DNA from: Paracoccaceae bacterium
GTDB lineage: Bacteria; Pseudomonadota; Alphaproteobacteria; Rhodobacterales; Rhodobacteraceae
Direction: 5' to 3'
NCBI GenBank assembly: GCA_027492585.1
Contig: JAPUEK010000054.1
Coordinates: 3,485 to 67,484, forward strand
Length of the DNA stretch: 64,000 bases
Part shown: piece after piece, positions 9,842 to 61,686 of the stretch
Layout of the letters: each line of letters starts with the position of its first letter
How positions within the stretch are numbered: the first letter of the stretch is position 1
Position numbers and translations under genes: made by a program
The notes under the pieces: model-generated
Told to the model about the DNA's origin: nothing
What the model saw: only the letters and a program-made list of their open reading frames with translations
The model's database searches: none

Positions 9842-9848
9842 CTGCCTG

Positions 9849-43536: not shown

Positions 43537-43564
43537 GCGGCTTCGGTGGGCGGTGCGCCTCCGG

Positions 43565-43669: not shown

Positions 43670-43865
43670 CTCAGGGAGCCGGGTGGGCATCTGGCCCGCA
43701 GAATGATTGGCGGTCGGCCGGGGTTCCGGGTCCGGGGTAAATCCTGTCCATTCCGGGTCTTCGGGCGGGAAAGGCGGCATTTCGCGCCTGATCGGCGCCG
43801 GTGTCCCGAGAAGGAATAGGTCCGATTTCCCGCCGCGACGCGGAGGTCCTTTCCCTCCCGCGCGC

Positions 43866-44089: not shown

Positions 44090-44468
44090 GCCGAGGGGAA
44101 GGGGGCGGAATGTCGGCGGGGAAACCTGCCGGCCTTCGGTATTCCGGGCTGCGATTCTGGCGGGTGATTTGGCGGGACGGCGCGCAGAGCTGCGGCAGGT
44201 GAGATTTTCTCTGCGGGCGCTCTGCCGCGAAAGGAGGTATTTCCTGCAACCCTGCGGCGAAGAACGGCTCTGTCGTATGGGGAAGAAACCTTCTGTGCCG
44301 CGCAGGAATTCTGGCCAGAGTCCGAAGAAAAATCTTTCACAAACCGGGCCTTGCGCCAAAGGCTGCCGCTCGATCCCCGGCAAAATAAGAAGCCCTGTTT
44401 CCTTGCGTCCCGGCTTTATATCGACTGAACTGATCGTGATTAAAAGCCGAGCAGTTCGATCAAGCAGG

Positions 44469-45476: not shown

Positions 45477-45490
45477 AACGGAGACAGATC

Positions 45491-46828: not shown

Positions 46829-46831
46829 GCG

Positions 46832-48022
46832 ATGCTCGACAGGCTCACCCATACGTCCGACCCGGAGGCGGCGATTGCCGAGGGGATCGCCCCCTTCCTC
46901 GCGCTGCGCCGGGATCTGCACCGCAACCCGGAGCTTTCGGGCAGCGAAAGGCGCACGGCGGGGATCATCGCCGGGCTGCTGCGCGACTGGGGTTATGAGG
47001 TCACGACCGGCATCGGCGGGCATGGCGTGGTCGGGCGGCTCTCGGCGGGGGAAGGCACGCGCAGCATCGGCTTGCGAGCCGATTTCGATGCCTTGCCCAT
47101 CGAGGAGGCGACCGGGCTCGACCATGCCTCGCAAGTTCCGGGCGTCATGCACGCCTGCGGCCATGACGGGCATACGGCGATCCTGCTGGCCGCCGCCCAT
47201 CACCTCGCCAAAACCCGCGCCTTCGATGGCACGGTGGTGCTGATCTTCCAGCCCGCCGAAGAGATCGGCGCGGGCGCGAAGGCGATGATCGCCGAGGGGA
47301 TCTTCACGCGCTTTCCGGTGGATGCGGTCTTTGCGCTGCACAATTGGCCGGGGGTGGCGGAGGGCCGCTGGGGCATCCTGCCCGGCCCGGTCATGGCGGC
47401 GATTGATCAGGTCAACCTGACCCTGCGCGGCAAGGGCGGCCATGGCGCCGCCCCGCAGGAAACCGTGGACCCGATCGTGGCCGCCGCCCATGCGATCGCC
47501 GCGCTGCAATCGGTGGTGGCGCGCAATGTCGATCCGCAGGAAACGGCGGTGGTCACGGTCGGCTCCATCCACGGCGGCAGCGCCTCCAATGTCATCCCCG
47601 AGACGGTGGAGGCGCGCCTCACGCTCCGCAGCTTCACCCCGGCGACGCGCGCGCTTCTGGCGGAACGGGTGCCGGCCATCCTGCGCGGGGTGGCCGAGGG
47701 CTTCGGCGCCAGGGCGGAGATCACGGTGAAACCGGGCTTCCCGCCGGTCGTCAACCATGCCGGCCCCGCCGCCCTTGCCCGAGAGGTCGCTCTGCGGCTC
47801 TTCGGGGCGGAGGCGGTGATCGCCGATTTCCGCCCCCGCACTGCCAGCGAGGATTTCGCCTGGATGCTGGAGGAACGGCCCGGCGCCTATCTGTTCATCG
47901 GCACGGGGCCGGGCGCCCCGCTGCACAGCCCCGAATACCGCTTCAACGACGCCATTCTGGCACCCGCCGCCGCCTTCTGGGTGCGGCTGGCCGAAACCTT
48001 CCTGACCGGAGACGCGCGATGA
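46832..48022 (+). CDS. M20 family amidohydrolase (hippurate hydrolase / N-acyl-amino-acid deacylase type)
   Basis: 396 aa. Motifs MHACGHDGH and FQPAEE, and the M20D architecture. Confidence 0.88.
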   Translation: MLDRLTHTSDPEAAIAEGIAPFLALRRDLHRNPELSGSERRTAGIIAGLLRDWGYEVTTGIGGHGVVGRLSAGEGTRSIGLRADFDALPIEEATGLDHASQVPGVMHACGHDGHTAILLAAAHHLAKTRAFDGTVVLIFQPAEEIGAGAKAMIAEGIFTRFPVDAVFALHNWPGVAEGRWGILPGPVMAAIDQVNLTLRGKGGHGAAPQETVDPIVAAAHAIAALQSVVARNVDPQETAVVTVGSIHGGSASNVIPETVEARLTLRSFTPATRALLAERVPAILRGVAEGFGARAEITVKPGFPPVVNHAGPAALAREVALRLFGAEAVIADFRPRTASEDFAWMLEERPGAYLFIGTGPGAPLHSPEYRFNDAILAPAAAFWVRLAETFLTGDAR

Positions 48023-48651
48023 CCGATCTGATCGTCGAAAGCACCCCTACCGCCCCCGAGGCGCAGCCCTTGGTCGAAGACCTGATCCGCGAATATGACG
48101 GACGCTACGGCACGCGGTTCAATCCCGAAGGCGCGCGGGCCGAGGTTTTCCGCTATCCGCCGGAGACCTTCGCGCGCCCGGACGGCAATTTCGTCCTGCT
48201 CTTGCGCGGGGGGCAAACCATCGGCGGCGGCGCCTTCATGCGGCTTGACGGCGAGACCGCCGAGTTCAAGCGCATCTGGACCGATCTGCGCTTCCGTCGT
48301 CAGGGGCTTGCCCGGCGGATCGTTCTGGCGCTTGAGGAAAAAGCGGCGGAGCAGGGCTATACCCGCGTCTATCTCACCACCGGCTTCCGGCAGCCGGAGG
48401 CAGTCGGGCTTTACCTCGGCCTAGGCTACCGCCCGCTTTTCGATCCGTCGGAAGACCCGGAGCTTTACCTCACCCTGCCGTTCGAGAAGCATATCGGCGC
48501 CCTTGCCGGAAAGCCCGGCACCAGCCCGCTGAAAGTGCCGGGCGTCTATCCGCCCGAGCTGGCCCATGCCGCGCCGAAGCGTCCGCCGCTGACGCGGGAA
48601 GCTCCGGGCGGCGGGCTGAGCCAGGTCCGGTTCGGGGGGGCGCTGTCGTGA
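48019..48651 (+). CDS. GNAT family N-acetyltransferase
   Basis: 210 aa. 4-nt overlaps with both neighbouring genes. GNAT core RFRRQGLARRIVLALEEKAAEQGY. Pro-rich C-terminal tail. Confidence 0.8.
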   Translation: MTDLIVESTPTAPEAQPLVEDLIREYDGRYGTRFNPEGARAEVFRYPPETFARPDGNFVLLLRGGQTIGGGAFMRLDGETAEFKRIWTDLRFRRQGLARRIVLALEEKAAEQGYTRVYLTTGFRQPEAVGLYLGLGYRPLFDPSEDPELYLTLPFEKHIGALAGKPGTSPLKVPGVYPPELAHAAPKRPPLTREAPGGGLSQVRFGGALS

Positions 48652-50441
48652 CCCTCACCTCGGATTTCACCACGACCACCGTCGCTCCCCGTCCCGCCCC
48701 GCAGGACCTGAGCCGCTTCCGCATCGTTCCCGCCCGCCACCCTGCCCGCACCTTCGGCACGGTCGTCGGGGTGATCCTGCTCGCTGCCCTGCTCAACTCC
48801 GTCTTCGGCAATCCGAAATGGGGCTGGGGTGTCTTTGCGGAATGGTTCTTTGCCGAGCCGGTGCTTTACGGCCTTGGCAAGACGCTGCTCTTGACCGCGC
48901 TCGGCGCTGTCTTCGGCTTCAGCCTCGGCACGGTGCTGGCGCTGGCGCGGGTCTCCTCCTCGCCGCTGCTTGTCGCGCTGAGCTGGGGGTTCATCTGGCT
49001 CTTCCGGTCGATCCCGCTGATCGTGCTGCTGCTGATCATCAACAACCTCGGCTATCTTTATGAGACCATCGGCATCGGCATCCCCTTTACCGGGATCAGT
49101 TTCCTGAGCTTTCCGACCACGCAGGCGATCACGCCGCTTCTGGCCGCCGTTCTGGGCCTGACGCTGAACATGGGGGCCTTCTCCGCCGAGATGATCCGCG
49201 GCGGCATCCTGTCGGTCGATCAGGGTCAGCACGAGGCGGCGGCGGCCCTCGGCCTGCCGAAAGGCCGTCAGGCCCGGCGCATCATCCTGCCGCAGGCGAT
49301 GCGGGCGATCCTGCCGACCGCGTTCAACGAGATCATCGGCTTGGCCAAAGGCACGTCGGTGGTCTACATCCTCGCCCTGCCGGAGCTGTTCTACACCATC
49401 CAGATCATCTACCGCCGCAATCTCGAGGTCATTCCGCTCCTGATGGTGGCGACGGTCTGGTATGTCGTCATCCTCTCGGTCCTGTCGGTGATCCAGTATT
49501 ACATCGAGCGGCACTATGCCCGCGGTGCGCTCCGCAATCCGCCTGCCGATGTGTTCCGCCTGGTGGCCGAGCGGCTGGGCCTGCTGCGTACCGCGAAACC
49601 CGCCCCGGTGGTGCAGGCCGCCCCGGCGCCCGTGCCTGCTGCGCCTCGCGTCGCGGCAAGCTGGACGGAAAGCCTGCCCAAAGGCGGCACGGTGGACATC
49701 CGCCATGTGTCGAAATCCTTCGGGCCGCTGCGGGTGCTGGACGATGTTTCCCTCACCGTGCCGTCGGGCAGCGTGACCGCGATCCTCGGGCAATCCGGCT
49801 CCGGCAAATCCACCCTGCTGCGGACCATCAACCACCTTGAGACGGTGGAGGAGGGCTTCATCGCCATCGACGGCGAGCTGGTCGGCTACCGTCAGGACGG
49901 CCACACGCTTTACGAGCTGAAGGAGCGCGAGATCCGCCGCCGCCGCGTCGATGTCGGCATGGTCTTCCAGCAGTTCAACCTTTTCCCGCATCTGACCGTG
50001 CTGGAGAACATCATCGAGGCACCGCTCGCGGTGCGCGGCCTGAGCCGCGACGAGGCGGAGCGTCTGGCGCGCGGTCTTCTCGCCCGTGTCGGGCTGTCGG
50101 ACAAGGCGGGCGCCTATCCGCGGCAGCTCTCGGGCGGCCAGCAGCAGCGCGTCGCCATCGCCCGGACCCTGGCGCTGAAGCCCAAGGTCCTGCTTTTCGA
50201 CGAACCGACATCCGCGCTCGATCCCGAGCTGGTGAACGAGGTTCTGGACGTGATCAAGGAACTGGCCCGCTCCGGCACCACCCTGATCATCGTCACCCAC
50301 GAAATCGGCTTTGCCCGTGAAGTCGCCGATACGATCGTCTTCATGGAACAGGGCCGGATCCTGGAGGTCGGCACACCGGAAAAGGTGTTCGGCCAACCGG
50401 ATCACCCGCGAACGGCGGAGTTCCTCGCCAAGGTGCTCTGA
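48648..50441 (+). CDS. amino-acid ABC transporter, fused permease + ATP-binding protein
   Basis: 597 aa. Residues ~1-292 are a polar-amino-acid-type permease (EAA-like loop GAFSAEMIRGGILSVDQGQHEAAAALGL). An Ala/Pro-rich linker is encoded at ~49524-49688. The C-terminal ATPase has Walker A GQSGSGKST, signature LSGGQQQR and Walker B LLFDEPTSALD. Confidence 0.9.
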   Translation: MTLTSDFTTTTVAPRPAPQDLSRFRIVPARHPARTFGTVVGVILLAALLNSVFGNPKWGWGVFAEWFFAEPVLYGLGKTLLLTALGAVFGFSLGTVLALARVSSSPLLVALSWGFIWLFRSIPLIVLLLIINNLGYLYETIGIGIPFTGISFLSFPTTQAITPLLAAVLGLTLNMGAFSAEMIRGGILSVDQGQHEAAAALGLPKGRQARRIILPQAMRAILPTAFNEIIGLAKGTSVVYILALPELFYTIQIIYRRNLEVIPLLMVATVWYVVILSVLSVIQYYIERHYARGALRNPPADVFRLVAERLGLLRTAKPAPVVQAAPAPVPAAPRVAASWTESLPKGGTVDIRHVSKSFGPLRVLDDVSLTVPSGSVTAILGQSGSGKSTLLRTINHLETVEEGFIAIDGELVGYRQDGHTLYELKEREIRRRRVDVGMVFQQFNLFPHLTVLENIIEAPLAVRGLSRDEAERLARGLLARVGLSDKAGAYPRQLSGGQQQRVAIARTLALKPKVLLFDEPTSALDPELVNEVLDVIKELARSGTTLIIVTHEIGFAREVADTIVFMEQGRILEVGTPEKVFGQPDHPRTAEFLAKVL

Positions 50442-50558
50442 CCGCCGATCAATCCCGAAACCGGCTTCATCCCAAAGAAGAAACCCGCCCGACCGGCGCC
50501 CCCGTGGCGACCGGACCGGGACGGGGCAACCCCAGAAACCCCCTCCCTCCTCAAGGAC

Positions 50559-51488
50559 ATGACCATGAAGACCCCATTGCGTAGCCTGATCCTCGGCGCC
50601 TTTGCCGCCCTTGCCTCCCTTCCGCTGCTGGCCGCCGAGCCGGATCTGTCACCCGAACAGCCCGGCCGCATCCGCGCCGAGAAGGTACAGGCGGCCATCG
50701 ACCTCATCCCCAAGGATTTCGCCTTCGTCACCCCCGGCAAGCTGACCGTGGCCACCAATCCCTGGCAGCTTCCCTTCGGCGTCTATGCCACCGACAACGC
50801 CACCCCCATCGGGGCGGAGCCGGATATCGCGCAACTCGTCGCCGACAGCCTCGGGCTGGAGCTGAACATCGTCGCCGTCGCCTGGGCCGACTGGCCGCTA
50901 GGCGTCGCCTCGGGCAAATATGATGCGGTGATCTCCAACGTCACGGTGACTGAGGAGCGCAAGGAGAAATTCGACTTCTCCACCTACCGGCAGGACCTTC
51001 TGGGCTTCTATGCGCCGAAGGACAGCAAGCTTGAGAAGATCGAGACGCCGAAGGATATCGCCGGTCTCAAGATCATCGTCGGCTCCGGCACCAATCAGGA
51101 GCAGATCCTTCTGAACTGGATCGAGGAGAACAAGGCAGCCAGCCTCGCGCCGACCGAACTGCTCTATTTCGACGATGAGGCGGCGCGGGATCTGGCGCTT
51201 TTCTCCGGGCGGGCGGATGCCTATTTCGGCCCGAACGCCGCCGAGGCCTACAAGAACTCCCTGCGGGACGACCGCAAGCTTCTGGGCAAATTCTCGGGCG
51301 GCTACCCGCTGACCGCCGAAATCGCGGTGACCACCCGCAAAGGCTCCGGTCTGGCAGAGGCGATCACGGCGGGTCTCAACGCCCAGATCGCCAATGGCAC
51401 CTATGGCAAGGTTCTTGCCCATTGGGGCATCGAATCCGAGGCGGTGACGGACTCCAAAACCAACCCGCCCGGCCTGCCGAAGCCCTGA
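50559..51488 (+). CDS. ABC transporter substrate-binding protein (family 3, polar amino acid type), paralog 1
   Basis: 309 aa with a signal peptide. Clearly paralogous to the next gene (shared blocks SGKYDAVISNV.VTEERK.K.DF.TYRQ, PKDIAGLKI..GSGT.QE.ILL.W, NPPGLPK). Confidence 0.88.
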   Translation: MTMKTPLRSLILGAFAALASLPLLAAEPDLSPEQPGRIRAEKVQAAIDLIPKDFAFVTPGKLTVATNPWQLPFGVYATDNATPIGAEPDIAQLVADSLGLELNIVAVAWADWPLGVASGKYDAVISNVTVTEERKEKFDFSTYRQDLLGFYAPKDSKLEKIETPKDIAGLKIIVGSGTNQEQILLNWIEENKAASLAPTELLYFDDEAARDLALFSGRADAYFGPNAAEAYKNSLRDDRKLLGKFSGGYPLTAEIAVTTRKGSGLAEAITAGLNAQIANGTYGKVLAHWGIESEAVTDSKTNPPGLPKP

Positions 51489-51548
51489 GCCAATGTCGCC
51501 CGCGGGCCGGTTCCGCGGGCGGTTTCCTCCTCCCCAGAAAGATCCGAC

Positions 51549-52511
51549 ATGCTCCCCCTTTCCTTCTCCCGCCGCCGGGGTCTGGCGCTTGGCCTCTCCG
51601 TCGTGCTGACCTCGCTTCTGCCGGGCCTTGCCGCGGCTGAAACCGCCCTGGCACCCGAGGTCAGCGGCCTTGCCGCCGAGCAGCCCGGCGCGCCGCATAC
51701 CAAACCCAATCCCGCGGCCATCGCGGCCCTGCCGGCGGGCTTCGCCTTCGTGACGCCGGGCAAGTTCACGGTTGCGGTTTCGGCCTTTGCGCCGCCCATC
51801 GCCACCCATGCCGTCGATGGCGAGACGGTGATCGGGGCGGACCCGGAAATCGCCCGGCTCATCGGCGAGGCGCTCGGGCTGGAGCTGGAACTGGTCACCG
51901 TCGCCTGGCCGGATTGGCCGCTCGGGGTCAGCTCCGGCAAATATGATGCGGTGATCTCCAATGTCGGCGTCACCGAAGAGCGCAAGCTGAAATATGATTT
52001 CGCCACCTACCGGCAGGGGCTGCACGGCTTCTATGTCGCCAAGGACAGCCCGATCCAGAGCATCGCCGAGCCGAAGGATATCGCCGGGCTGAAGATCGTC
52101 ACCGGCTCCGGCACCATTCAGGAGCGCATCCTGCTGGAATGGAACCGCCAGAACGCCGGGGCGGGTCTGGCGCCGGCGGAACTGCTGTTCTTCGACGATG
52201 ATGCGGCAGAGACGCTGGCGGTCCTGTCGGGGCGGGCCGATGCCAACTTCAACCCCAATGGCACTCAGGCGTGGAATTCGGCGATCACCGGCAAGACCCG
52301 CCGGGTCGGCACGGTCAATGCGGGCTGGCCGCTCAATGCCGATGTGGGCGTGGTGACGAAGAAGGACAGCGGCCTCGCGCCCGCCGTCGTCATCGCGCTG
52401 AACGGGATCTTTGCCGAGGGCGCCTATGCCAGGGTTCTGGAACGCTGGGGGCTTGGCGAGGAAGCCATTGCCGAAAGCCGCCTGAACCCGCCCGGCCTGC
52501 CGAAGTTCTGA
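51549..52511 (+). CDS. ABC transporter substrate-binding protein (family 3), paralog 2
   Basis: 320 aa. Signal peptide with an RRR-containing N-region. Tandem paralog of 50559..51488. Confidence 0.88.
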   Translation: MLPLSFSRRRGLALGLSVVLTSLLPGLAAAETALAPEVSGLAAEQPGAPHTKPNPAAIAALPAGFAFVTPGKFTVAVSAFAPPIATHAVDGETVIGADPEIARLIGEALGLELELVTVAWPDWPLGVSSGKYDAVISNVGVTEERKLKYDFATYRQGLHGFYVAKDSPIQSIAEPKDIAGLKIVTGSGTIQERILLEWNRQNAGAGLAPAELLFFDDDAAETLAVLSGRADANFNPNGTQAWNSAITGKTRRVGTVNAGWPLNADVGVVTKKDSGLAPAVVIALNGIFAEGAYARVLERWGLGEEAIAESRLNPPGLPKF

Positions 52512-52518
52512 GGCCGCG

Positions 52519-53541
52519 ATGAGCTATTCCTTCACACAGGTCGGTTTTCTCATCCCCGGAAATTTCGCGGAGGACGATCCGCTCCGCGGGCTTGAGGACA
52601 CGCTCGACATCATCGCGCGCGGCGAGGATCTGGGTTACTCCTCCGCCTGGGTCCGCCAGCGGCATCTGGAACGGGGCGTCTCCTCCGCCTCGGCCTTCCT
52701 CGGGGCGGCGAGCCAGCGGACGACGCGCATCGGGCTTGGTACGGCGGTCATCCCGCTCGGCTATGAAAACCCGTTCCGGCTGGCCGAGGATCTGGCGACG
52801 GTGGATGTGCTGTCACGCGGGCGGCTGAACATCGGGGTCAGCGCGAACCCGCCCCAGTTCGGCGCGCTGCTCGGCGATCTCCTTTATGATGGCGACCCGG
52901 CGGGCAACGACTACAGCCACGCCCGCGCCGAGCGGTTTGCCCGCGCCCTGCGGTCCGAGCCCTTGTCGGACAGGGCCGAGGCGGGCAATGCCGCAGGCGC
53001 GCAGGTTCCGCGCCTGCAACCGATCGCCAGGGGGCTGACGGAACGGCTCTGGTATGGCGGCGGTTCGCTGAAATCGGCGGAATGGTCCGGGCGCAACGGC
53101 TGGCACATGCTGACCGGCAATATCGTGACCGGCGAGGGGACCGATGATTTCCTGACCGCGCAGGGGGCGCTCATCGACCGCTTCCTTGGCCATTGGCACG
53201 GGGTGGGCGCACCGCGCATCGCCCTTGGCCGGGTGATCCTGCCGACCGACAGCGCCAGCCCCGTGCAGCGCCGCCGCTACCGCGACTACGTTGCAGCGCG
53301 CAGCCCGCGCACCCTTGGCCCGCAGGGGCCGAAACGCACCCTCTTCGGGGCGGATATCGTCGGCTCGCTCGACGAGATCCTTGAAACGCTGGCACGCGAT
53401 CCCATCGCCACCCGCGTGTCGGAGTTCCGGCTGGAGCTGCCCTATGACTTCCCCCACGAGGATTATGTTCAGATCGTCGAGGATTTCGCCCGCCTTCTGC
53501 CCGTGATCCGACCGGCTGCGCTGCCGCGCACCGGAACCTGA
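52519..53541 (+). CDS. LLM-class flavin-dependent oxidoreductase
   Basis: 340 aa. Luciferase-like TIM-barrel signature (LGYSSAWVRQRH, RIGLGTAVIPLGYENPFRLAEDLATVDVLSRGRLNIGV). Confidence 0.8.
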   Translation: MSYSFTQVGFLIPGNFAEDDPLRGLEDTLDIIARGEDLGYSSAWVRQRHLERGVSSASAFLGAASQRTTRIGLGTAVIPLGYENPFRLAEDLATVDVLSRGRLNIGVSANPPQFGALLGDLLYDGDPAGNDYSHARAERFARALRSEPLSDRAEAGNAAGAQVPRLQPIARGLTERLWYGGGSLKSAEWSGRNGWHMLTGNIVTGEGTDDFLTAQGALIDRFLGHWHGVGAPRIALGRVILPTDSASPVQRRRYRDYVAARSPRTLGPQGPKRTLFGADIVGSLDEILETLARDPIATRVSEFRLELPYDFPHEDYVQIVEDFARLLPVIRPAALPRTGT

Positions 53542-53550
53542 CCCAAGGAG

Positions 53551-53907
53551 ATGACCATGACGACACCAGCCAAGACCCGGATCGACGGGCAGACCGCCCT
53601 TGCCGCCTGGCGCGAGGGGGCGATCCTGATCGACGTGCGCTCCGAACAGGGGCGGAGCAAGAATGGCGAGGTCCAGGGCGCGATCATCGTCGCCAAAAGC
53701 GACGTGGTCGATGTCGTGACCCGCAGGCTCCGGGGACGGTCCTCCGCCCAGCCGGTGATCCTTTTCTGCGGTTCCGTCGCCGGCACCGCACCGCTGATCG
53801 AGGCGCTCGTCGCGGCGGGCGAAACCGCGGTGGCCGATGTCGAAGGCGGGGTCGCCGCCCTGACCGGAGAGAACGGCCTCGCCGTGGTGCAGGCGGTTCC
53901 GGCCTGA
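53551..53907 (+). CDS. rhodanese-like domain protein
   Basis: 118 aa. LIDVRSE...G.I.GA and the active-site loop candidate ILFCGSVAGT. Confidence 0.7.
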   Translation: MTMTTPAKTRIDGQTALAAWREGAILIDVRSEQGRSKNGEVQGAIIVAKSDVVDVVTRRLRGRSSAQPVILFCGSVAGTAPLIEALVAAGETAVADVEGGVAALTGENGLAVVQAVPA

Positions 53908-53946
53908 GCGCGCCCCTGCGCGGGCTCTTCCCTCCATCCACTGTGC

Positions 53947-53998
53947 ATAAATATCCTGCGGGGAGGTCCGGAGGGGTGCAAAACCCCTCCGGCGCCTG
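53947..53998 (-). repeat. Family B repeat, copy B5 (short form, reverse orientation)
   Basis: ataaatatcctgcggggaggtccggaggggtgcaaaacccctccggcgcctg. Its reverse complement is almost identical to the first ~50 nt of B3. Confidence 0.9.
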
Positions 53999-54027
53999 CC
54001 ACGGGCGAGCCGCCCGCCACCTGTCCC

Positions 54028-54537
54028 TCAGCCTTCCTCCGGCAGATGCACCGCGCGGCGATAGGCGCGTTGGCCGTATAGAAGCGCGGCGGGGCTTTCC
54101 GACAGCCGGATCGAGGTGACGCGGCCGATCAGGATGTGATGCGTCTCCCACAGAAGCGCTGTGGCAAGGCGGCACTCAAAGGCCGCCGTCGCACCCTCGA
54201 TCATCGGCTGGCCGCCGGCCCCCGCGCTCCACGCCGCCTTGTCGAAGCGCGCCGCCGCCTCCCCGCCGCCACGCCCGGCGAAGAGATCCGAGACCGCCTG
54301 CTGGCTTTCGGCCAGAAGGTTCGCGCAGAACATCCGGTTCTTCAGGATCGCGGCGGCAGCGGGGCTCTGGTGGTGGATGCAGGCCAGAAGCGAGGGCTGC
54401 TCCCCATCCGCCGAAACCGAGGTCAGCGAGGAGATGGTGACGCCGAAGCGCCCCGCCTCGCCATCGGTGGTGGCGACGGCCACGAAGGTCGCCGCCCGGC
54501 TCATCCCTTCCAGAAAGAGGGCGCGCAGATCGCTCAT
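54028..54537 (-). CDS. flavin reductase family protein (NAD(P)H:FMN oxidoreductase component)
   Basis: 169 aa with a Flavin_Reduct-like core (FVAVATTDGEAGRFGVTISSLTSVS...PSLLACI). Confidence 0.8.
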   Translation of the reverse strand: MSDLRALFLEGMSRAATFVAVATTDGEAGRFGVTISSLTSVSADGEQPSLLACIHHQSPAAAAILKNRMFCANLLAESQQAVSDLFAGRGGGEAAARFDKAAWSAGAGGQPMIEGATAAFECRLATALLWETHHILIGRVTSIRLSESPAALLYGQRAYRRAVHLPEEG

Positions 54538-54540
54538 GGC

Positions 54541-55884
54541 TCAGCCCAGATCGAAGAAGCGGTACAGCTCGACATCCGGCACCTTGCGGCTGAATTCGTC
54601 GAACTGGCTCTGCCGGGTGGCGGCGAAGGCGTTGACGAAGGGCGCCCCCAGCCACTCGCGCGCGAAGTCGGAGCCTTTCAGCCGCTCGATCGCCTCGGGC
54701 ATCCTGCGGGCGTAATCGGGGCCGGACTTGCCCTGGGCATGGCCGTTGCCGATGACCTCCGGCTCCGGCTCGATCTTCTCGATCATCCCGGCGACCCCGG
54801 CGGCAATCGTCGCGGCGGCGGACAGGTAGGGGTTCACATCCCCGCCCGGCAGGCGGTTCTCGACCCGCAGGGAACCCGCATCATGGCCGACGATGCGGAA
54901 GCAGGTGGTGCGGTTCTCGTAACCCCAGGTCAGACCGGGGGGCGCGAACGTGCCGGGGGCGAAGCGGCGGTAGGAATTCACCGTCGGCATGAAGACCAGC
55001 GACATGTCCCCGATATATTTCTGCAAACCGCCGAGGAAATGCTTGAAGCTTTGCGATACGCCGTTCTTCTGGCCCGCCTCGTGGAACAGCGCCTTGCCGG
55101 CCTTGTCCTTCATGCTGACATGAAGGTGGATCGACTGGCTGTCGGCATCCTCTGTCCAGCGGGGCATGAAGGTCACCGATTTCCCCTGCCGCAGGGCAAG
55201 GGCGCGGATGAAATTCTTCAGAAGCATCAACTGGTCGGCCGGTTCCAGCCCCTCGCCCGCGCCGATGCAGGCCTCCATGAAGCCCGCGCCGATTTCCTCG
55301 TGCATCTTGGCAAGGTCGATGCGGAGCGGCTCGCAGATCTCGGCAAGGGCCTCGTACCATTCGGTCTGCACCACCTGATACAGCGTCAGATCGTGGCTCG
55401 CGTGCATGGTCGCGGTGTTGAGGTTGCGATACCCCTTGGCCCGCGCGCTTTCGGGGGTCTCGTTGAAGAGCGTGTATTCCAGCTCCATCCCGTATTTCGG
55501 CACGAAACCCGCCTCTGCCGCGCGGTCCAGCACCGACTTCAGGATCGAGCGCGGGCAGAGCGCCGCCGAGGCCCCGCTGTATTGCGTGAGCAGCAGGAGG
55601 TCGTAGCCCGGCTTCGACCACGGCAGGCGGCGGGCCGAGGCGGGGTCCACGATCAGGGGATCGTCGTGGAAATCCCCGGTGTCGTCGTTCACCCCCGGCA
55701 TCGACAGCATGGCATCGGTCGGGTCCAGCGAAAGCTGTGCCGGGGCCATGCCCATGCCGTTCTTCAGGATGCCCTGCAGGCTGCGGGCCGACACCATCTG
55801 ACCGCGCAGGAGCCCGTTGGTATCGGCCAGGGCCACGGTGGCAAAGCGGCTGGCGGGGTCGTTCAGGAAAGTCTCGAGCGTCAT
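54541..55884 (-). CDS. glutamine synthetase family protein (gamma-glutamyl-amine ligase type, PuuA-like)
   Basis: 447 aa. GS catalytic-domain motifs GMELEYTLF, IHLHVS, NSYRR and ENR. Confidence 0.85.
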   Translation of the reverse strand: MTLETFLNDPASRFATVALADTNGLLRGQMVSARSLQGILKNGMGMAPAQLSLDPTDAMLSMPGVNDDTGDFHDDPLIVDPASARRLPWSKPGYDLLLLTQYSGASAALCPRSILKSVLDRAAEAGFVPKYGMELEYTLFNETPESARAKGYRNLNTATMHASHDLTLYQVVQTEWYEALAEICEPLRIDLAKMHEEIGAGFMEACIGAGEGLEPADQLMLLKNFIRALALRQGKSVTFMPRWTEDADSQSIHLHVSMKDKAGKALFHEAGQKNGVSQSFKHFLGGLQKYIGDMSLVFMPTVNSYRRFAPGTFAPPGLTWGYENRTTCFRIVGHDAGSLRVENRLPGGDVNPYLSAAATIAAGVAGMIEKIEPEPEVIGNGHAQGKSGPDYARRMPEAIERLKGSDFAREWLGAPFVNAFAATRQSQFDEFSRKVPDVELYRFFDLG

Positions 55885-55896
55885 GGGGGCAAATCC

Positions 55897-56580
55897 TCAG
55901 AGGGCTGCGGGAGAGGGCTGGGGAAGCGGGGCGGTCAGGCGGGACAGGCTGGCAAGATCGGTAGCGGGATCGGTGGAATAGGCGCGCAGGAAGACCCTGA
56001 GGCCATTGGTGATCGACCGGGCAAGTTCGGCGCGGGTCGGCACCGCATCGGGAATGTGCAGCGCCCGGTTGCGCGGGGCGGAAAGGACAAGGCCCCAGAG
56101 GTCCTCGGCGGCCAGATCCGCCTCCTCGAAGGCAAGCCGTCCCGCTGCTCGCTGGCGGGTCAGGTAGGCGACCATCCCCGCCAGAACCCGGTCCGGTCCG
56201 GAGGCCTGATAGGCGCGGCCGATATCGGGGAACCTTTGCGCTTCGCCGATGATCAGCCGGGCGAGCGACAGGAATTCCGGCCGCATCACGGTTTCGGCGT
56301 AATGCCAGGCAAAGCCGTGCAGCTCCGCCACCATGCCGCCCGAAGGCGCCTCGAAAACCGCGAGCATCTGGTCGCGCCCCTGTGTCAGGATGGCGGTGAA
56401 GAGCGCCTCCTTGGAAGGGAAATACTGATAGAGCGTCGGCTTCGACAGACCGGCGCGGGCGGCGATGTCATCCATCACCGCGCCGGAATAGCCGGTCTGC
56501 GAAAAGACCTGCAAAGCGGCTTCAAGGATGCGGGCTTCGCGCAGCAGGCGGTTCTGCTGGCGGCGGGGCAGGTCGGTCAT
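55897..56580 (-). CDS. TetR/AcrR family transcriptional regulator
   Basis: 227 aa from ATG 56580, which forms an ATGA overlap with the upstream gene's stop. HTH region GYSGAVMDDIAARAGLSKPTLYQYFPSKEALF. The upstream part of track ORF ..57105 was rejected. Confidence 0.88.
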   Translation of the reverse strand: MTDLPRRQQNRLLREARILEAALQVFSQTGYSGAVMDDIAARAGLSKPTLYQYFPSKEALFTAILTQGRDQMLAVFEAPSGGMVAELHGFAWHYAETVMRPEFLSLARLIIGEAQRFPDIGRAYQASGPDRVLAGMVAYLTRQRAAGRLAFEEADLAAEDLWGLVLSAPRNRALHIPDAVPTRAELARSITNGLRVFLRAYSTDPATDLASLSRLTAPLPQPSPAAL

Positions 56581-57866
56581 GGGGCCAGCCTTGCGAAGAA
56601 ATCCGTCAGCAGGGCGTTGTAGGCGGCCGGTTCCTCGACATTGCAGACATGGCCCGCACCGGGGATGACCTCGAAGCGCACATCGGCGCGCGGGGCGGTC
56701 TCGGCGATGCGGGCAGAGACGGCACGGATCTCGGCGGGTGGGGCGAGGCGGTCGAACTCCCCGGTCATCATCAGCACCGGCATGGTGAGGCGCGCGAAGT
56801 CGAGCCGTTCCAGTGGGTTGGTGAAACAGACGAGCGCATCGCGGTAGGTCGCCGCCGGGATCGCCGACATGGAGGCCAGAAGCGCGTCGCGCACCGCCTG
56901 CGAGGCACCGGGAGAGGCGAGCACCTTGACCACGGCGGGGGCGAAATCGGCCGGAACCTGCCCCGCGTTCAGCGGCACCTCGCGCGAGACGCGGAAGGCC
57001 TCGCGTTCTTCCGGCCCGGCCTCCGACATGCCGGTGCAGCCGCCGGACAGGACCAGACCCGCCAGCCTTTCGGGATGGCGCGTGGCGAAGGAGGTGGCGA
57101 TCCACGAACCGTAGGAGAGGCCGCAGAGCACCAGTTGCTCTGCGCCAAGCGCCTCGGCCACGCGCAGGATGTCATCGCAGTAATCGTCCACCGTCGATTG
57201 CCGGAAGCCGAGCGAGCTGTCGCCGTAGCCGCGCAGATCAAGTGCTGCGGCCCGCATCACCGGGGCTGTGGCGGCAAGCTGCGCGTCCCAGTTGCCGCGC
57301 CCGCCGCCGATGCCGTGCAGGAAAAGGCAGAGCGGGCCGGGTCGGGGGGGCGTCACGGTCAGCGCCAGCCGGGGGGTGGCGTCGAGCACCATCGGCTCCA
57401 GGGCCGCAGAGGGCGTCGGAGCGGGGGGTGTCGGGGCAGGCGTCTCGGTCGCGGCGGCGGCGAGAGCGGCGATCCCCGCCTCGAAGATCGCACGGGTGCC
57501 GTCGGCGATCGCCTTGGCCCGCGCGGCGGGGGCGGCGATGCGGGCGGTCCAGTTGATCACCGTGCCGCCCTCCTCGGCGGCTGCGATGGTCAGGCGGGCG
57601 TCATAGCTTTCCACCCCCTCGATGCCTTGCAGATGGGTATAGGCATAGCTGCGGTCGCTGTCGGAAAACCACGTCAACTGCTCGCGGTAGAGCGTCTCTT
57701 CGCCATGGGTGGTGAAGGCGCGGACCCGTGCGCCGTGCGGCCCGCGTTCGGCGCGGATCGTTGCCATGGCGGGATGCCAGAGACCGCAGAAGTCCCGTGC
57801 CACGGCCCAGACGGCGGCAGGCTCCGCCGCCGCGAAGCCGATGACATGGACGGCTTCGCGTGCCAT
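56577..57866 (-). CDS. fusion protein: N-terminal SRPBCC (START/polyketide-cyclase-like) domain + C-terminal alpha/beta hydrolase
   Basis: 429 aa. Residues ~1-140 look SRPBCC-like (...VWAVARDFCGLWHP...). A Pro/Thr/Ala linker TETPAPTPPAPTPSA is encoded at ~57372-57440. The hydrolase part has the oxyanion-like LFLHGIGGG and the nucleophile elbow GLSYGS. Confidence 0.7.
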   Translation of the reverse strand: MAREAVHVIGFAAAEPAAVWAVARDFCGLWHPAMATIRAERGPHGARVRAFTTHGEETLYREQLTWFSDSDRSYAYTHLQGIEGVESYDARLTIAAAEEGGTVINWTARIAAPAARAKAIADGTRAIFEAGIAALAAAATETPAPTPPAPTPSAALEPMVLDATPRLALTVTPPRPGPLCLFLHGIGGGRGNWDAQLAATAPVMRAAALDLRGYGDSSLGFRQSTVDDYCDDILRVAEALGAEQLVLCGLSYGSWIATSFATRHPERLAGLVLSGGCTGMSEAGPEEREAFRVSREVPLNAGQVPADFAPAVVKVLASPGASQAVRDALLASMSAIPAATYRDALVCFTNPLERLDFARLTMPVLMMTGEFDRLAPPAEIRAVSARIAETAPRADVRFEVIPGAGHVCNVEEPAAYNALLTDFFARLAP

Positions 57867-59173
57867 CAGCGCAGGCCCTTGAGGCTGCCCGCCTCCCCGC
57901 GCCAGAGCGAGGAGCGTGCGCCGCCCTCATCCCCCGGTGCGCTGTCGATCTCCTCCATCTCGTAGAGCGCCAGGACGCCCATGTAATCTTCCATGATCTC
58001 AGAGGTATAGGGCAGCATCAGCGCGCCGCAGCGGCTGTCCCGATACATGCGTTCCAGCGGCAGCGACTTCAGCATCGACTGACCGCCGCAGGTGCGGATC
58101 GCAAGGGCGGCGATCTCCTGCACGCCCTCCATGACGTTGTACTGCGCGGCATACATCCGCATGACCTCGCCCTTGGTCGGAAAGCCCTTGGCCTCGCCGA
58201 AGGCCTGCCACCAGAGCGCGCGCATGTTGGCGAGACGGGCATACATCTTGCCCACGGTGATGCGCTTGGTCGCATACATGCGGCGGTCGATCGGCGGCTG
58301 GCCGGGGATCTTGCCCTTCAGGTAATCGACCATGAAATCATAGGCCCCCTGCGCCACACCCATATAGGTCGGCGAGAGGGTGGCCATCATGTGCGGCCAG
58401 TTCGGCAGGGTCTTGCCGAAGATGCCGCGCGGCATCAGCAGGTCGTCGCGGGTCACGAAGACATCCTTCAGGATCAGGTCGCGGCTGTTGGTGCCGCGCA
58501 TCCCCAGCGGGTCCCAGTCGCCCTTCACCGTCAGGCCCGGCGCATCCTTGTGGACGACGAACAGCATCGTGTCCTCGTGGCGCGGCTCCACCCCCTCGAA
58601 GACCTCGGTGCAGACGATGGTGTAGTAGTCGCAATAGCCCGCGAGGCTGGCGAATTTCTTGAAGCCGGAGATTTTCCAGCCCCCCTCCACGGCGCGGCAC
58701 TGGGTCTGGTTCGGTTTCGAGGTCCAGTTCTGCCCGCCTTCGGAGATGGGCTGCGAATAGATCGCCCGCTCGGCGATGGCGCGGCGGAACTGGCGTTCGC
58801 GCAGGATGGCGAATTCGGCCTTCTCCTCGGGCGTCAGGTTCGGCATGTCGAACATGAACCGCGACCAGGCCATCGAGGAATTGTGCATGTTGAAGGTCAG
58901 CGCGGTCGCCCCGCAGTATTTGCCGATCTCTGCCCCGACCATGGCATATTCGCCCATCGAGAAGCCCTGCCCGCCGAATTCCTCCGGGATGGTCAGGCCG
59001 AGAAAGCCCTCGTCGGCGAGGTCCCTGTAATTCTCCACCGGGAAGGACGCATCATCATCCACCCCTTTGGCGCGTTCTGCAAAGCGGGGGCCAAGCTCGT
59101 TCACCCGGCGCAGGACGGCCTGAACCTCGGGGCGGATGCGGGACAGGTCGTAGTAATCGGCGATATCGCTCAT
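57866..59173 (-). CDS. acyl-CoA dehydrogenase-fold flavoprotein (dehydrogenase or group-D flavin monooxygenase)
   Basis: 435 aa from ATG 59173 (MSDIADYY...). ACAD N/M/C architecture (...ENYRDLADEGFLGLTIPEEFGGQG...). The stop overlaps the next start by 1 nt (TGATG). Confidence 0.75.
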   Translation of the reverse strand: MSDIADYYDLSRIRPEVQAVLRRVNELGPRFAERAKGVDDDASFPVENYRDLADEGFLGLTIPEEFGGQGFSMGEYAMVGAEIGKYCGATALTFNMHNSSMAWSRFMFDMPNLTPEEKAEFAILRERQFRRAIAERAIYSQPISEGGQNWTSKPNQTQCRAVEGGWKISGFKKFASLAGYCDYYTIVCTEVFEGVEPRHEDTMLFVVHKDAPGLTVKGDWDPLGMRGTNSRDLILKDVFVTRDDLLMPRGIFGKTLPNWPHMMATLSPTYMGVAQGAYDFMVDYLKGKIPGQPPIDRRMYATKRITVGKMYARLANMRALWWQAFGEAKGFPTKGEVMRMYAAQYNVMEGVQEIAALAIRTCGGQSMLKSLPLERMYRDSRCGALMLPYTSEIMEDYMGVLALYEMEEIDSAPGDEGGARSSLWRGEAGSLKGLR

Positions 59174-59256
59174 GGTCTTTCCCTGTTCAGAATGGATGTG
59201 CGGAAGCAGGCGGGCCAGCCGGTCGGCGGTCCGCAGGCAGAAAGGGTGGGGCGGGG

Positions 59257-60309
59257 TTACAGGGCCAGTTCGCCCTGCAGAACCCCGTCCTTGACGACGA
59301 CACGGCCATCGAGCGCGATGGTGCAGTTCCGCATCGGCAGGTCGAAATGGCCGAGCGTGTAGCGCCCGGCATATTGGTTCGCCCCCGTGGACCACAGGAA
59401 CGACCCGGCGAGGGCACGGAATTCCACGGCCTGCATGTCGCGCTTGTCGAACATCGCGGCAGAAATCCATTTCGCGCCGGGGTTCATCCCCCAGCCGACA
59501 TGGCTCATCCCATAGGCGTTGCGGTCGCCCCAGGCCTCCATGTATTCGCGGAAATGCAGGGCGTCGATGCCGTCGCCCTTGATGGCCGTGACGAAATCGT
59601 CTTCGACGGTGAAGTCGATGCGGCTGGTCAGGTAGGTCTTGAACGTCAGGTTCATGTCGCCGACGTCCATGACGATCCGCCCGTTGACCGCATTCTTTCC
59701 GGGGAAGGCGAGGCAGAGCCCGCCCGGCCAATGCGCCACGGAGCCGGGCGTGGTGCCGAAGCCCGCCGTCCCGCCGCAGGGCGCGCCGCGCAGGTCGATG
59801 GTCAGATCGGTGCCGGCCGCCGAGGTCACGCGCATCTCAGAGGCTTCGCGCAGCATCTGGATGCCGGCCTGAACGCGGGGGCCGTGTTCGGCCTTGGGTT
59901 CGGTGCGCTCAAGGATTTCGGGGTGTTCGTTGGTGATGACGAGAAGACGGGTGCGACCGGCCTCCTCGATCTCCGGCCATTCGGGGGCGTGGATCAGCCC
60001 CTCGACCGTGCAATCGACGATGACCTCGACCAGTTTCAGCGCCTCGATCACAGCGCGGTTGCCTTGCAGCGCCCAGCTCGTGCCGGTGGATTTCACCGGG
60101 ACCGGCGCGCTCAGAACCGGGGTCGGCATCTGGATCAGGCAGAATTCCGCGCCGAGGTCATAGGCGGCCAATTCGCACAGGTGGACCAGAACCGGGCGGG
60201 ACTGGGTTTCGGACAGGATGGCGATCTTCGTTCCCTGACCGATGCCGTTCAGCGCCAGCACCCGGCGGAAGGCGGCGAGCCACTTCCCCTCGATCCGTTC
60301 CTGCAACAT
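59257..60309 (-). CDS. M29 aminopeptidase-fold protein, NicX-like (2,5-dihydroxypyridine 5,6-dioxygenase family candidate)
   Basis: 350 aa. The blocks HWPGG....FP......G.IV.DVGD and SHVGWGMNP.A.W...........A....G.FLWSTG.N.......LGHFDLPMRNC.I.LD match my recollection of Pseudomonas NicX and related aminopeptidase-T-like proteins. Not verified by search. Confidence 0.5.
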   Translation of the reverse strand: MLQERIEGKWLAAFRRVLALNGIGQGTKIAILSETQSRPVLVHLCELAAYDLGAEFCLIQMPTPVLSAPVPVKSTGTSWALQGNRAVIEALKLVEVIVDCTVEGLIHAPEWPEIEEAGRTRLLVITNEHPEILERTEPKAEHGPRVQAGIQMLREASEMRVTSAAGTDLTIDLRGAPCGGTAGFGTTPGSVAHWPGGLCLAFPGKNAVNGRIVMDVGDMNLTFKTYLTSRIDFTVEDDFVTAIKGDGIDALHFREYMEAWGDRNAYGMSHVGWGMNPGAKWISAAMFDKRDMQAVEFRALAGSFLWSTGANQYAGRYTLGHFDLPMRNCTIALDGRVVVKDGVLQGELAL

Positions 60310-60346
60310 GGCCCATCCTCCCCGATGATTCGCGTCGCTTGAATAT

Positions 60347-60364
60347 CTTAACTTGCGAGTTAAG
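60347..60364. promoter_or_regulatory. 7-4-7 palindrome CTTAACT-TGCG-AGTTAAG in an AT-rich promoter region (candidate TetR operator)
   Basis: Perfect 7-bp arms at 60347-60353 and 60358-60364, lying 38-55 nt upstream of the first gene of the minus-strand operon that encodes a TetR regulator. Confidence 0.35.
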
Positions 60365-60429
60365 TTTTCTTACGGCAGGGCCTCTGTCAACGGAAATTTC
60401 AAGCTTCAACCATTTCCGGGTTTTGGCGG

Positions 60430-61569
60430 TCAGAGCAGCCCGCGCCCGGCAAGGTTCCGTATCAGCGCCGCCGTGCCGAAGGTCCATTCCGGCGCCTCCG
60501 TGGCCAGCCGGACGGTGTTGACGAGCGCGCCAAGGCCCGGGGCCGAGATCGTCACCCGGTCGCCGACGTGATGGGTAAAGCCCTGGCCCGGTCCGTCGCG
60601 GTCCTGCACCGGGGCGAACATCGTGCCGCAGTAGAGCATGAAGCCGTCCGGATACTGGTGATGCCGTCCGCGGGTCTGGGCCACGAGGTCCGCCGGATCG
60701 CGGCTGATCTCGGTCATGGAGGAGCGTCCGGTCATGCGGAACCCGTCCTGCCCCAGAACCTCCAGCGACAGTTCCGCGCGGCGCAGGTCGTCAAGGCCGA
60801 AGCCCCCGTCGAAGAGCCGGATGAACGGCCCGATGCTCGCCGCCGCATTGTTGTCCTTGGCCTTGCCGAGCAGAAGGGCGGACCGTCCCTCCACATCGCG
60901 CAGGTTCACATCGTTGCCGAGGGCGCCGCCGCAGATCTCCCCCCGGCTGTTGACGGCCAGAACCACCTCCGGCTCCGGGTTGTTCCAACGGCTGATGGGG
61001 TGGAGCCCGACGCTCGCGCCGTAGCCGACCGCCGACATCGGCTGGGCTTTGGTGAAGACCTCGGCATCCGGGCCGATCCCGACCTCAAGATACTGGCTCC
61101 ACAGCCCTTCGGCCTGCAAAAGCCGCTTCACCTCCGCCGCCTTCTCCGACCCCGGCACCAGCCCCCGCAGGCTGTCGCCGATCACCGCCGCCACGCGGGC
61201 GCGGATGCCCTCGGCGCGGGAGGCGTCGCCGGCGGCGCGCTCCTCGATCACCCGCTCGATCATCGAGCCGGCGAAGGTCACGCCGCAGGCCTTCACCGCC
61301 TGAAGGTCATTGGGGGAGAGAAGCCGCGTCGTCTCCGGCCCGGCTTCTTCGCTGGTGGCCAGAAGGGCGGCAAGCGGGCCGAGATCCTCGCCCGGTGAGG
61401 CACGGGCGAAGGCGGCGGGATCGGGCCGTTCCAGCAGGTCGCGCAGGGTCGGGGCGGTGCGGCTGGTGATATCCGTCACCCGCCCCTCCCGCAGATGGAC
61501 GAGGCAGGGACCGATCCCCTGCCGCCAGACCCGGCCCACATAGCATCCTGCGCTGTCCAAACCGTCCAT
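60430..61569 (-). CDS. fumarylacetoacetate hydrolase family protein (long ~380-aa form)
   Basis: 379 aa from ATG 61569, preceded by GGAGGA. FAH-like C-terminal half (...GNDVNLRD.E......LGKAKDNNA..S.GPF...). The upstream part of track ORF ..62847 was rejected. Confidence 0.75.
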   Translation of the reverse strand: MDGLDSAGCYVGRVWRQGIGPCLVHLREGRVTDITSRTAPTLRDLLERPDPAAFARASPGEDLGPLAALLATSEEAGPETTRLLSPNDLQAVKACGVTFAGSMIERVIEERAAGDASRAEGIRARVAAVIGDSLRGLVPGSEKAAEVKRLLQAEGLWSQYLEVGIGPDAEVFTKAQPMSAVGYGASVGLHPISRWNNPEPEVVLAVNSRGEICGGALGNDVNLRDVEGRSALLLGKAKDNNAAASIGPFIRLFDGGFGLDDLRRAELSLEVLGQDGFRMTGRSSMTEISRDPADLVAQTRGRHHQYPDGFMLYCGTMFAPVQDRDGPGQGFTHHVGDRVTISAPGLGALVNTVRLATEAPEWTFGTAALIRNLAGRGLL

Positions 61570-61686
61570 CCGATCCTCCCCCATTGCTGGCAGAGCAAAG
61601 CCGATCCGCCGCCCTGTCGCAAGCCATTGCCCCCGCGTCAGGCGCCGCCTAGAACCGGGGCCATTGCTTGCGGAACGGAGACCCGA

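Follow-up and report, generated by a model that had tools for sequence, protein, structure and literature searches.

The minus strand of the window, a 64,000-nucleotide stretch of a Paracoccaceae bacterium genome (GenBank assembly GCA_027492585.1, contig JAPUEK010000054.1), carries a six-gene operon (60309 to 54028) that begins with a homologue of NicX, the Fe(II) dioxygenase that opens 2,5-dihydroxypyridine. The arrangement of the six genes is far from chance and represents a real operon of conserved order, as all six were found colinear and on one strand in 65 of 69 related loci. Here, we propose, tentatively and with slightly less than even confidence, that the operon is a self-contained, horizontally mobile catabolic unit under a repressor-controlled promoter and that it acts on an aromatic or N-heteroaromatic amine via conjugation, hydroxylation, hydrolysis, and ring opening. 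Beyond the family assignments, we infer all that is proposed below, including the order of the steps. An earlier reading of the DNA made from the sequence alone (the sequence-only reading) had suggested an N-heterocycle or amine catabolic module; this reading is partly supported, but the hydroxypyridine/NicD route that it considered has been weakened. It had also not recognized the composition as a described pathway, and a full-text literature search indeed found no paper describing this combination of six genes.

The open reading frame listing and the translations show that the six genes are all co-directional on the minus strand. In operon order, they encode a divergent-clade homologue of the NicX-family non-heme Fe(II) ring-cleavage dioxygenases (59257–60309, 350 aa), a flavoprotein of the acyl-CoA dehydrogenase (ACAD) fold that lacks the catalytic Glu and is the putative oxygenase of a two-component monooxygenase (57866–59173, 435 aa), a fusion of an SRPBCC domain (residues ~13–139) with an α/β hydrolase (residues ~168–426; 56577–57866, 429 aa), a TetR-family regulator with an AefR-like C-terminal domain (55897–56580, 227 aa), a glutamine synthetase-like (GS-like) ATP-dependent ligase (54541–55884, 447 aa), and an NAD(P)H:flavin reductase of the HpaC/RutF type (54028–54537, 169 aa). 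In the same order, an 83-nt gap follows the first gene, the next two junctions are overlaps of 1 nt and 4 nt, and the last two are gaps of 12 nt and 3 nt; the gene count, strand, and junction lengths of the sequence-only reading match the listing exactly. Searches of Pfam, NCBIfam, and the PDB served to check the domain assignments.

Scanning one genome per species gave 283 relatives of the NicX-like gene, and the locus counts in this work rest on the best 80 of them, in which the gene is 85–93% identical. These 80 come from two groups, the Paracoccaceae (Tabrizicola, Gemmobacter, Cypionkella, Rhodobacter, and others) and the Phyllobacteriaceae (Mesorhizobium and Pseudaminobacter), and the island is also carried by plasmid pAA02 of Aminobacter aminovorans (NZ_CP015007), where the NicX-like gene is 86% identical. 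The contig was long enough for a gene-order count in 69 of the 80 loci. Co-occurrence of the six genes across genomes, which the sequence-only reading had left to be measured, is complete in all but four: three loci lack the reductase alone, and one lacks TetR and the reductase. Across loci, the identity of the partners is 77–92% for the ACAD-fold protein, 67–82% for the GS-like ligase, 55–76% for the hydrolase, 59–73% for TetR, and 52–84% for the reductase. Four extra genes precede the operon in 25 of 72 loci (extended islands), and none of the four is present in 28 of the 72. They encode a gentisate/5-aminosalicylate dioxygenase-like (GDO-like) cupin, an FAH-family hydrolase, a nitrilase-superfamily C–N hydrolase, and a second flavin reductase; a divergent GntR gene usually accompanies this upstream block. 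In 36 of 61 loci, an APC-family permease gene comes after the six genes. Neither the cupin nor the nitrilase-like gene has an orthologue in the genome of the window, and therefore the six-gene core stands alone here.

The first product was found by phmmer to match NicX (PDB ID: 7CN3) over 330 residues with an E value of 4.9e-58 and ~40% identity. No aminopeptidase appeared among its PDB matches, the sole other match at E up to 10 being unrelated. None of the models in the local Pfam and NCBIfam copies matched the product; its orthologues bear the precomputed PF26233 (NicX fold). The iron of NicX is held by His265, Ser302, His318, and Asp320 (PMC7910607). In the alignment, all four ligand positions are identical (H265, S302, H318, and D320), and H105, H189, and R293 are also conserved. 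The NicX-like assignment of the sequence-only reading, which had asked for these ligands to be weighed against the M29 metal sites, is thus borne out by the E value, the four iron ligands, and the missing aminopeptidase match, and the protein is a NicX-family enzyme with a complete predicted Fe(II) site. The substrate pocket is different. The substrate of NicX is held by His105, Glu177, and His189 in a channel shaped by Leu104, Cys76, and Glu308; Glu177 forms two hydrogen bonds, to the ring N–H and the C2 oxygen of 2,5-dihydroxypyridine, the E177A mutant has 2.7% activity left, and the enzyme was reported to be active on one substrate only (PMC7910607). In the protein of the window, Glu177 is replaced by Thr within a Gly-rich loop (GGTAGFG), leaving the substrate-positioning network incomplete with both histidines kept. 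Other changes are Glu308 to Tyr, Val175 to Gly, and the deletion of the four-residue Cys76 loop.

Among 1.84 billion cluster representatives, 155 matches to the NicX-like product were found at E up to 1e-30, and a word-limited protein search gave at least 6,870 matches at E 1e-20 or better among the 8,000 candidates scored. A maximum-likelihood tree of 57 full-length family representatives plus NicX separated, with a support of 100/99, a clade of 18 members, among them the protein of the window, from one of 39 members that includes NicX; only in the latter is position 177 occupied by Glu or Gln. The annotation pipeline PGAP calls the gene on pAA02 "peptidase M29" and gives merely generic names to the rest of the operon, and it names 36–39% identical relatives on other plasmids "2,5-dihydroxypyridine 5,6-dioxygenase". 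Because of the Glu177 to Thr replacement and the separate clade, the NicX-type assignment of the sequence-only reading stands, but 2,5-dihydroxypyridine as the substrate and the subsequent NicD-type deformylation have become doubtful; plain 2,5-dihydroxypyridine is probably not what this enzyme cleaves, judging from its predicted pocket.

These observations bear on a variant of the maleamate pathway, in which a monooxygenase would make 2,5-dihydroxypyridine from a hydroxypyridine or a pyridine carboxylate, the NicX-like enzyme would convert it to N-formylmaleamate, the hydrolase would serve as the NicD-type deformylase, and the GS-like ligase would have a peripheral role in handling nitrogen or a side-chain amine. 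We consider this route unlikely, even though the 40% identity and the retention of all iron ligands together with H105, H189, and R293 speak for it, as do the hydrolase gene in the same operon (adjacent in relatives) and the extended islands, which add the FAH-family hydrolase and, as a possible substitute for NicF, the nitrilase-superfamily C–N hydrolase. The Thr at the position where Ala leaves NicX almost inactive, the placement outside the only clade with Glu or Gln177, and the different PGAP names all oppose it. Furthermore, as the sequence-only reading had noted, the usual NicF and NicE partners are absent, in that neither type is among the six genes (homologues were not sought genome-wide); the genome has neither the nitrilase-like nor the GDO-like gene, and the strictly linked, island-specific GS-like gene is left without explanation. 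Compared with nicX–nicD in the nicotinate pathway of Pseudomonas putida KT2440, the operon shares the enzyme family, the iron ligands, and an α/β hydrolase encoded alongside. In contrast, NicF, NicE, NicC, and NicAB are all absent, the hydrolase has an SRPBCC domain, and the accompanying genes encode an ACAD-fold protein together with a GS-like ligase and a flavin reductase.

All three Pfam Acyl-CoA_dh domains (N, M, and C) are present in the ACAD-fold protein. The catalytic Glu of the T. thermophilus ACAD (GEGT in 1WS9) aligns to Pro387 in the segment MLPYT, which resembles MQPYS of the nitrososynthase ORF36. The MLP motif is invariant across 23 family members, whose sequences share the pattern ATALTFNMH ... 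RDSRCGALMLP. The closest solved relative is 5GJ7/5Z8T (E 3e-35), deposited as "Flavin-containing monooxygenase", and no relevant paper on either entry was found in the literature; the dehydrogenase 1WS9 and then amino-sugar N-oxygenases follow in the PDB sequence ranking. The protein falls far below the cut-offs of the NCBIfam equivalogs, dehydrogenase and monooxygenase alike. An AlphaFold2 model built from the 23-sequence alignment had a pLDDT of 83 and TM scores of 0.7–0.75 to ACAD-fold structures. The flavin reductase scored 110 bits against Pfam Flavin_Reduct (PF01613), and its best PDB relative is the HpaC-type 3CB0. The two genes share an operon in 65 of 69 loci, and the reductase, missing in the other four, is the least constant member. 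Thus the catalytic base, the retention of which the sequence-only reading had left to be checked, is replaced by Pro at the 1WS9-type position, as distinct from the alternative IVD-type one, and a reductase is encoded in the operon. A Glu-less ACAD-fold protein beside a flavin reductase is the signature of a putative two-component flavin monooxygenase, and we assign the oxygenase role on these two grounds, the linked reductase and the missing base. The three-domain fold without the catalytic Glu and a separate PF01613 reductase nearby are features in common with DszC/TdsC, SfnB, MsuC, HsaA, ORF36/KijD3/DnmZ, and SadA/SadB of sulfonamide degraders; the protein differs from them in its family motif, given above, in an identity of at most 27% to any of them, and in that no equivalog model comes near its cut-off.

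Two side observations concern this pair. In pAA02, the reductase continues at its C-terminus into a LysR-type substrate-binding domain that lacks a helix–turn–helix (locus L089, 16701–17879, 392 aa), an unusual union of reductase and sensor, and the same fusion is probably present in the Mesorhizobium loci in which the reductase identity falls to 52–60%. Elsewhere in the genome of the window, contig C2 (108113–119769) carries a 26% identical ACAD-fold gene adjacent to a flavin reductase gene, along with genes for GntR, an ABC transporter, a GS-like protein, and an FAD monooxygenase; this locus is a possible analogue of a conjugate-and-oxidize logic.

The product of 56577–57866 matched Pfam Polyketide_cyc2 (SRPBCC) and Abhydrolase_1/6. 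The Ser (in GLSYG), Asp, and His residues align with those of the esterase 4UHH, and the hydrolase has a predicted intact Ser–Asp–His triad. The TetR regulator scored 69 bits with TetR_N and 91 bits with TetR_C_7, and it occupies the same position in 68 of 69 loci. The GS-like ligase matched Gln-synt_C with 267 bits over residues 109–442, and the segments NSYRR, ENRT, and RVENR are visible in its PDB alignment. It did not reach the NCBIfam equivalog cut-offs for GlnA I (163/429 bits), type III GS (179/470), or GGputSyn (PuuA; 174/650), and the deposited name of its best PDB relatives, 11ZS and 5DM3, is no more specific than "glutamine synthetase". In 400 genomes of the class, only two GS-like relatives passed E 1e-90, both with 39% identity, and the lineage is essentially restricted to the six-gene island.

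An ACAD-fold N-oxygenase next to a GS-like ligase might also belong to a small biosynthetic or modifying cassette that builds an N-oxygenated or N–N-linked metabolite. Of the solved structures with a named function, the nitrososynthases ORF36, KijD3, and DnmZ are close relatives of the ACAD-fold protein and have the M-x-P-Y motif in common with it, and GS-like enzymes take part in glutamyl-hydrazine routes. Nevertheless, carrier, NRPS/PKS (nonribosomal peptide synthetase/polyketide synthase), sugar, and export genes are all missing, and the linkage to ring-cleavage enzymes (the NicX-like protein, and the GDO-like cupin with FAH in 25 of 72 loci), the uptake-type permease, and the repressor-type control point elsewhere, so that we give such a cassette very little credence.

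Among 400 genomes drawn evenly from the class, 24 have NicX-like relatives of 49–72% identity, and the surroundings were fetched for 20 of them. An α/β hydrolase gene adjoins the NicX-like gene in 17 of the 20, and 16 of these hydrolases are 270 aa long and lack the SRPBCC domain. An ACAD-fold gene with the RDSRCG(A/S)LMLP motif is present in 17 (14 by strict clustering), and an AMP-forming ligase of the generic PRK06187/MenE type follows immediately in 10. A MarR gene was found in 4 of the 20 distant loci, and a flavin reductase in 2. These sister clusters resemble the operon in their NicX-like (50–60% identical) and ACAD-fold proteins (39–53% identical, with the motif in common), and both versions combine a hydrolase with a single ATP-dependent ligase. 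They differ in the gene order (NicX, hydrolase, and ACAD), in the hydrolase without SRPBCC, in having the AMP-forming ligase in place of the GS-like one, in having MarR in place of TetR where a regulator was seen, and in a reductase that is rarely linked. The AMP-forming ligase gave generic matches only, and hence provides no hint as to the substrate. Taken together, the NicX-like enzyme, the hydrolase, and the Glu-less ACAD-fold protein form a constant unit, to which one variable ATP-dependent ligase is added, of either the GS-like or the AMP-forming kind. The sister version suggests the same chemistry performed on a different (carboxylate) handle.

The 72% identical relative, from the same family as the window genome, has NicX, ACAD, SRPBCC-hydrolase, and TetR genes. 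The SRPBCC–hydrolase fusion is kept in this relative and in all close orthologues and is absent from the 50–60% identical relatives. Beside its operon are Puu-like genes (GS-like, amine oxidase, and aldehyde dehydrogenase) and glutamate-synthase-like genes (Glu_synthase, GXGXG, and GATase), the latter of which we take to be of the kind used in the N-methylglutamate pathway. Its SRPBCC-hydrolase and TetR read as one 656-aa frame (G288, locus L090, 11613–13583), which is either a real fusion or the result of a lost stop codon.

Here, we outline the route that the operon may encode. An amine-bearing aromatic or N-heteroaromatic compound would enter the cell, in many other genomes probably imported by the linked APC permease. 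The GS-like enzyme would couple it to glutamate with ATP to give a γ-glutamyl "handle", and the ACAD-fold oxygenase, with reduced flavin from the reductase, would then hydroxylate the ring para to the nitrogen function. The SRPBCC-hydrolase may remove the handle or hydrolyze the ring-fission product, the NicX-like dioxygenase would open the resulting para-substituted ring, and TetR would sense the inducer. An amine theme in the neighboring genes, namely the APC permease and the Puu-like and glutamate-synthase-like genes beside the 72% identical relative, supports this proposal. In γ-glutamylation-dependent amine catabolism, the amine is conjugated, oxidized, and deconjugated, as with PuuA–D for putrescine, TdnQ/AtdA1 for aniline, and IpuC for isopropylamine. 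The resemblance to these systems is that a single catabolic operon encodes a GS-like ligase along with an oxygenase and a hydrolase. The operon differs in that the oxygenase is an ACAD-fold two-component enzyme rather than a Rieske dioxygenase, P450, or amine oxidase, the ring would be cleaved by a NicX-family enzyme, the GS-like ligase is under every equivalog cut-off, and the hydrolase is not of the class I amidotransferase type.

Several points weigh against the conjugation-based route. Neither the six genes nor the common accessory genes include a class I amidotransferase γ-glutamyl hydrolase of the PuuD/TdnT type, and removal of the handle by the α/β hydrolase is therefore an assumption. 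The operon of the 72% identical relative has neither a ligase nor a reductase, so that the ligase may be accessory. Foldseek ranked dehydrogenases and monooxygenases alike for the ACAD-fold model, so the fold leaves the chemistry of this protein unsettled. The protein could also act after ring opening. The pairing of the NicX-like gene with a hydrolase also fits the classical deformylase role.

A more specific proposal, which we hold with distinctly less confidence than the catabolic operon as such, is that the NicX-like enzyme cleaves not 2,5-dihydroxypyridine but another para-substituted ring (such as that of an aminophenol, an aminopyridinol, or an anthranilate-like compound bearing a hydroxyl group) made on the γ-glutamyl conjugate. 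This would be an undescribed "γ-glutamyl-handle" route and the counterpart of the sister route in which the AMP-forming ligase provides a CoA or adenylate handle. If this is true, the NicX family would no longer be limited to the one substrate known for it.

The sequence-only reading closed its stretch at 60364, which falls within a promoter palindrome; the control region extends to 60429. In the 130 nt upstream of the operon, one architecture is common to nearly all loci: a palindrome, TTGACA, and a second palindrome. In the window, TTGACA is a −35-like hexamer of the minus strand (60385–60390) and is exact in 76 of 81 upstream regions; the consensus promoter scan of 53700–60600 found no full sigma-70 match, and the promoter and terminator scan of the same region had no match, including inside the six-gene block. 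Directly 5′ of this box lies the dyad GGAAAT-N13-ATTTCC (60393–60417, minus strand), a degenerate local form of the palindrome GATTTTCGAAAATC of the orthologous loci. The palindrome ATTTTCGAAAAT (at most one mismatch) lies no more than 250 nt upstream of the NicX-like start codon in 58 loci, and in the extended islands it is also found ~3.9 kb upstream, at the promoter of the GDO-like operon (24 cases). In loci L009–L088, ATTTTCGAAAAT marks the promoter of the NicX-like operon and the divergent GntR/GDO-like promoter. A single regulator for both operons of the extended islands is suggested by the marking of both promoters. Between the −35 box and the start codon is a perfect 7-4-7 palindrome, CTTAACT-CGCA-AGTTAAG (60347–60364, minus strand), of which most other loci have imperfect versions. 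This second palindrome (TTAACT-N4-AGTTAA form) lies ~20 nt beyond TTGACA and is restricted to the promoter of the six-gene operon, and all 15 occurrences of TTAAC-N6-GTTAA in 1.48 Mb of related loci are at this promoter position. The promoter and the palindromes are present even in loci where other genes precede the operon. The 7-4-7 palindrome is a candidate operator, probably bound by the operon's own TetR, but the other, ATTTTCGAAAAT-type palindrome could equally be the TetR site. A conserved third dyad near the Shine–Dalgarno site showed no significant RNA folding in the window.

Between the operon and a convergent plus-strand operon is a stable hairpin, CCGGAGGGG-TGCAAAA-CCCCTCCGG (53968–53992). 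Its folding energy is −30.1 kcal/mol for the minus strand (z −2.7) and −37.4 kcal/mol for the plus strand (z −4.5). The hairpin probably serves as a terminator in both directions and belongs to a genome-wide family resembling repetitive extragenic palindromes (REP-like). The REP-like palindrome GGAGGGG(C/T)TTTGCACCCCTCC has ~150 copies in the genome (at most two mismatches); those in the window are at 43573–43593, 53970–53990, 30570, and 22561, the second being the copy between the convergent operons.

The mobility of the module is indicated by comparison with a same-genus genome (G001), from which a 16.9-kb segment of the window (43537–60429) is absent. In a blastn search of contig C11 of G001 against the window, 8336–10530 of its locus (L110) matched 62586–60437, and 10557–12353 matched 43521–41725. 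The flanks thus adjoin each other in G001, where the stop of the FAH-family gene is 3 nt from that of a convergent nucleoside-hydrolase gene, and the segment is therefore an insertion in the window. It contains the six-gene operon and the convergent operon described below, two operons that look unrelated. G001 itself has a full eleven-gene island located between genes that are neighbors on contig C67 of the window genome. Given the different chromosomal site in the congener and the 16.9-kb insertion here, the module is mobile. Among 40 sampled relatives, a close orthologue was found in the same-genus genome only. At the borders of the insertion, neither an integrase nor a tRNA was seen, nor were there flanking direct repeats of more than 8 bp. 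One REP-like copy (43573–43593) lies at its left edge. On the plus strand at 44000–44089, a short open tail translates to ...LSFYNTREEVDRFIAVIRSLSAMRR*, which presumably resembles the C-terminal end of a SufS/CsdA-type cysteine desulfurase and is probably a gene remnant from a rearrangement at the island edge. At the other flank, the FAH-family gene (60430–61600, minus strand) was considered as an operon member and rejected, since it is not conserved beside the module and is a resident flank of the insertion. It belongs to a resident sugar-kinase neighborhood and is 88% identical in the congener; its open reading frame was artificially extended to 805 aa in the six-frame listing.

The convergent plus-strand operon comprises nine genes (44169–53907), encoding an MsnO8-family luciferase-like monooxygenase (LLM), an NtaA/DmoA-family LLM, an M20 amidohydrolase, a GNAT protein, a fused ABC permease–ATPase, two cystine-type binding proteins, a third LLM, and a rhodanese. 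We presume that it is akin to the acetylate–oxygenate–deacetylate sulfur-salvage operons and to the S-alkylcysteine salvage operon of Bacillus subtilis. The sequence-only reading had regarded the terminal flavin reductase as the only obvious supplier of reduced flavin mononucleotide (FMNH2) to these LLMs and had suggested a functional coupling of the two operons. The genome has eight PF01613 reductase genes, the LLM operon is nearby in none of the 80 related loci, and it is absent altogether from G001. The only link between the two operons is the one insertion common to both here; the proposed coupling is thus not supported and was rejected.

The joint insertion also enters a further alternative, in which the ACAD-fold protein is non-hydroxylating and acts after ring opening or on the conjugate, resembling the Glu-less 3-sulfinopropionyl-CoA desulfinase or sulfur enzymes of the SfnB/DszC type, and the operon takes part in sulfur or nitrogen scavenging with the LLM operon. 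Weak NCBIfam matches to 3-sulfinopropanoyl-CoA desulfinase, SfnB, and DszC agree with this, and so do the order NicX, hydrolase, ACAD, and ligase in relatives and the location in one 16.9-kb insertion with the LLM/M20/GNAT/cystine-type ABC/rhodanese operon. Those matches, however, are far under the cut-offs, and all six products stay below the curated cut-offs of every sulfur-metabolism family. The LLM adjacency is unique to this genome, and the linked reductase in 65 of 69 loci argues for reduced-flavin chemistry. We accordingly judge this alternative improbable, more so than the maleamate variant.

Returning to the proposed catabolic operon, its meaning for the NicX family lies in a large, well-separated clade in which the iron site is kept and the substrate pocket is rebuilt, which points to a new ring-cleavage chemistry. 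An ACAD-fold oxygenase and a hydrolase are the regular partners of this non-NicX clade. The module is abundant, mobile, and 85–93% identical across two orders, and its compound is therefore probably a common nitrogenous aromatic, natural or man-made, in fresh water and soil. The question is directly testable because culturable carriers exist, among them Aminobacter aminovorans KCTC 2477 (pAA02), Gemmobacter caeni DSM 21823, and Tabrizicola and Mesorhizobium strains. Moreover, the swap between a GS-like and an AMP-forming ligase on a constant trio represents a natural experiment in the change of an activating handle.

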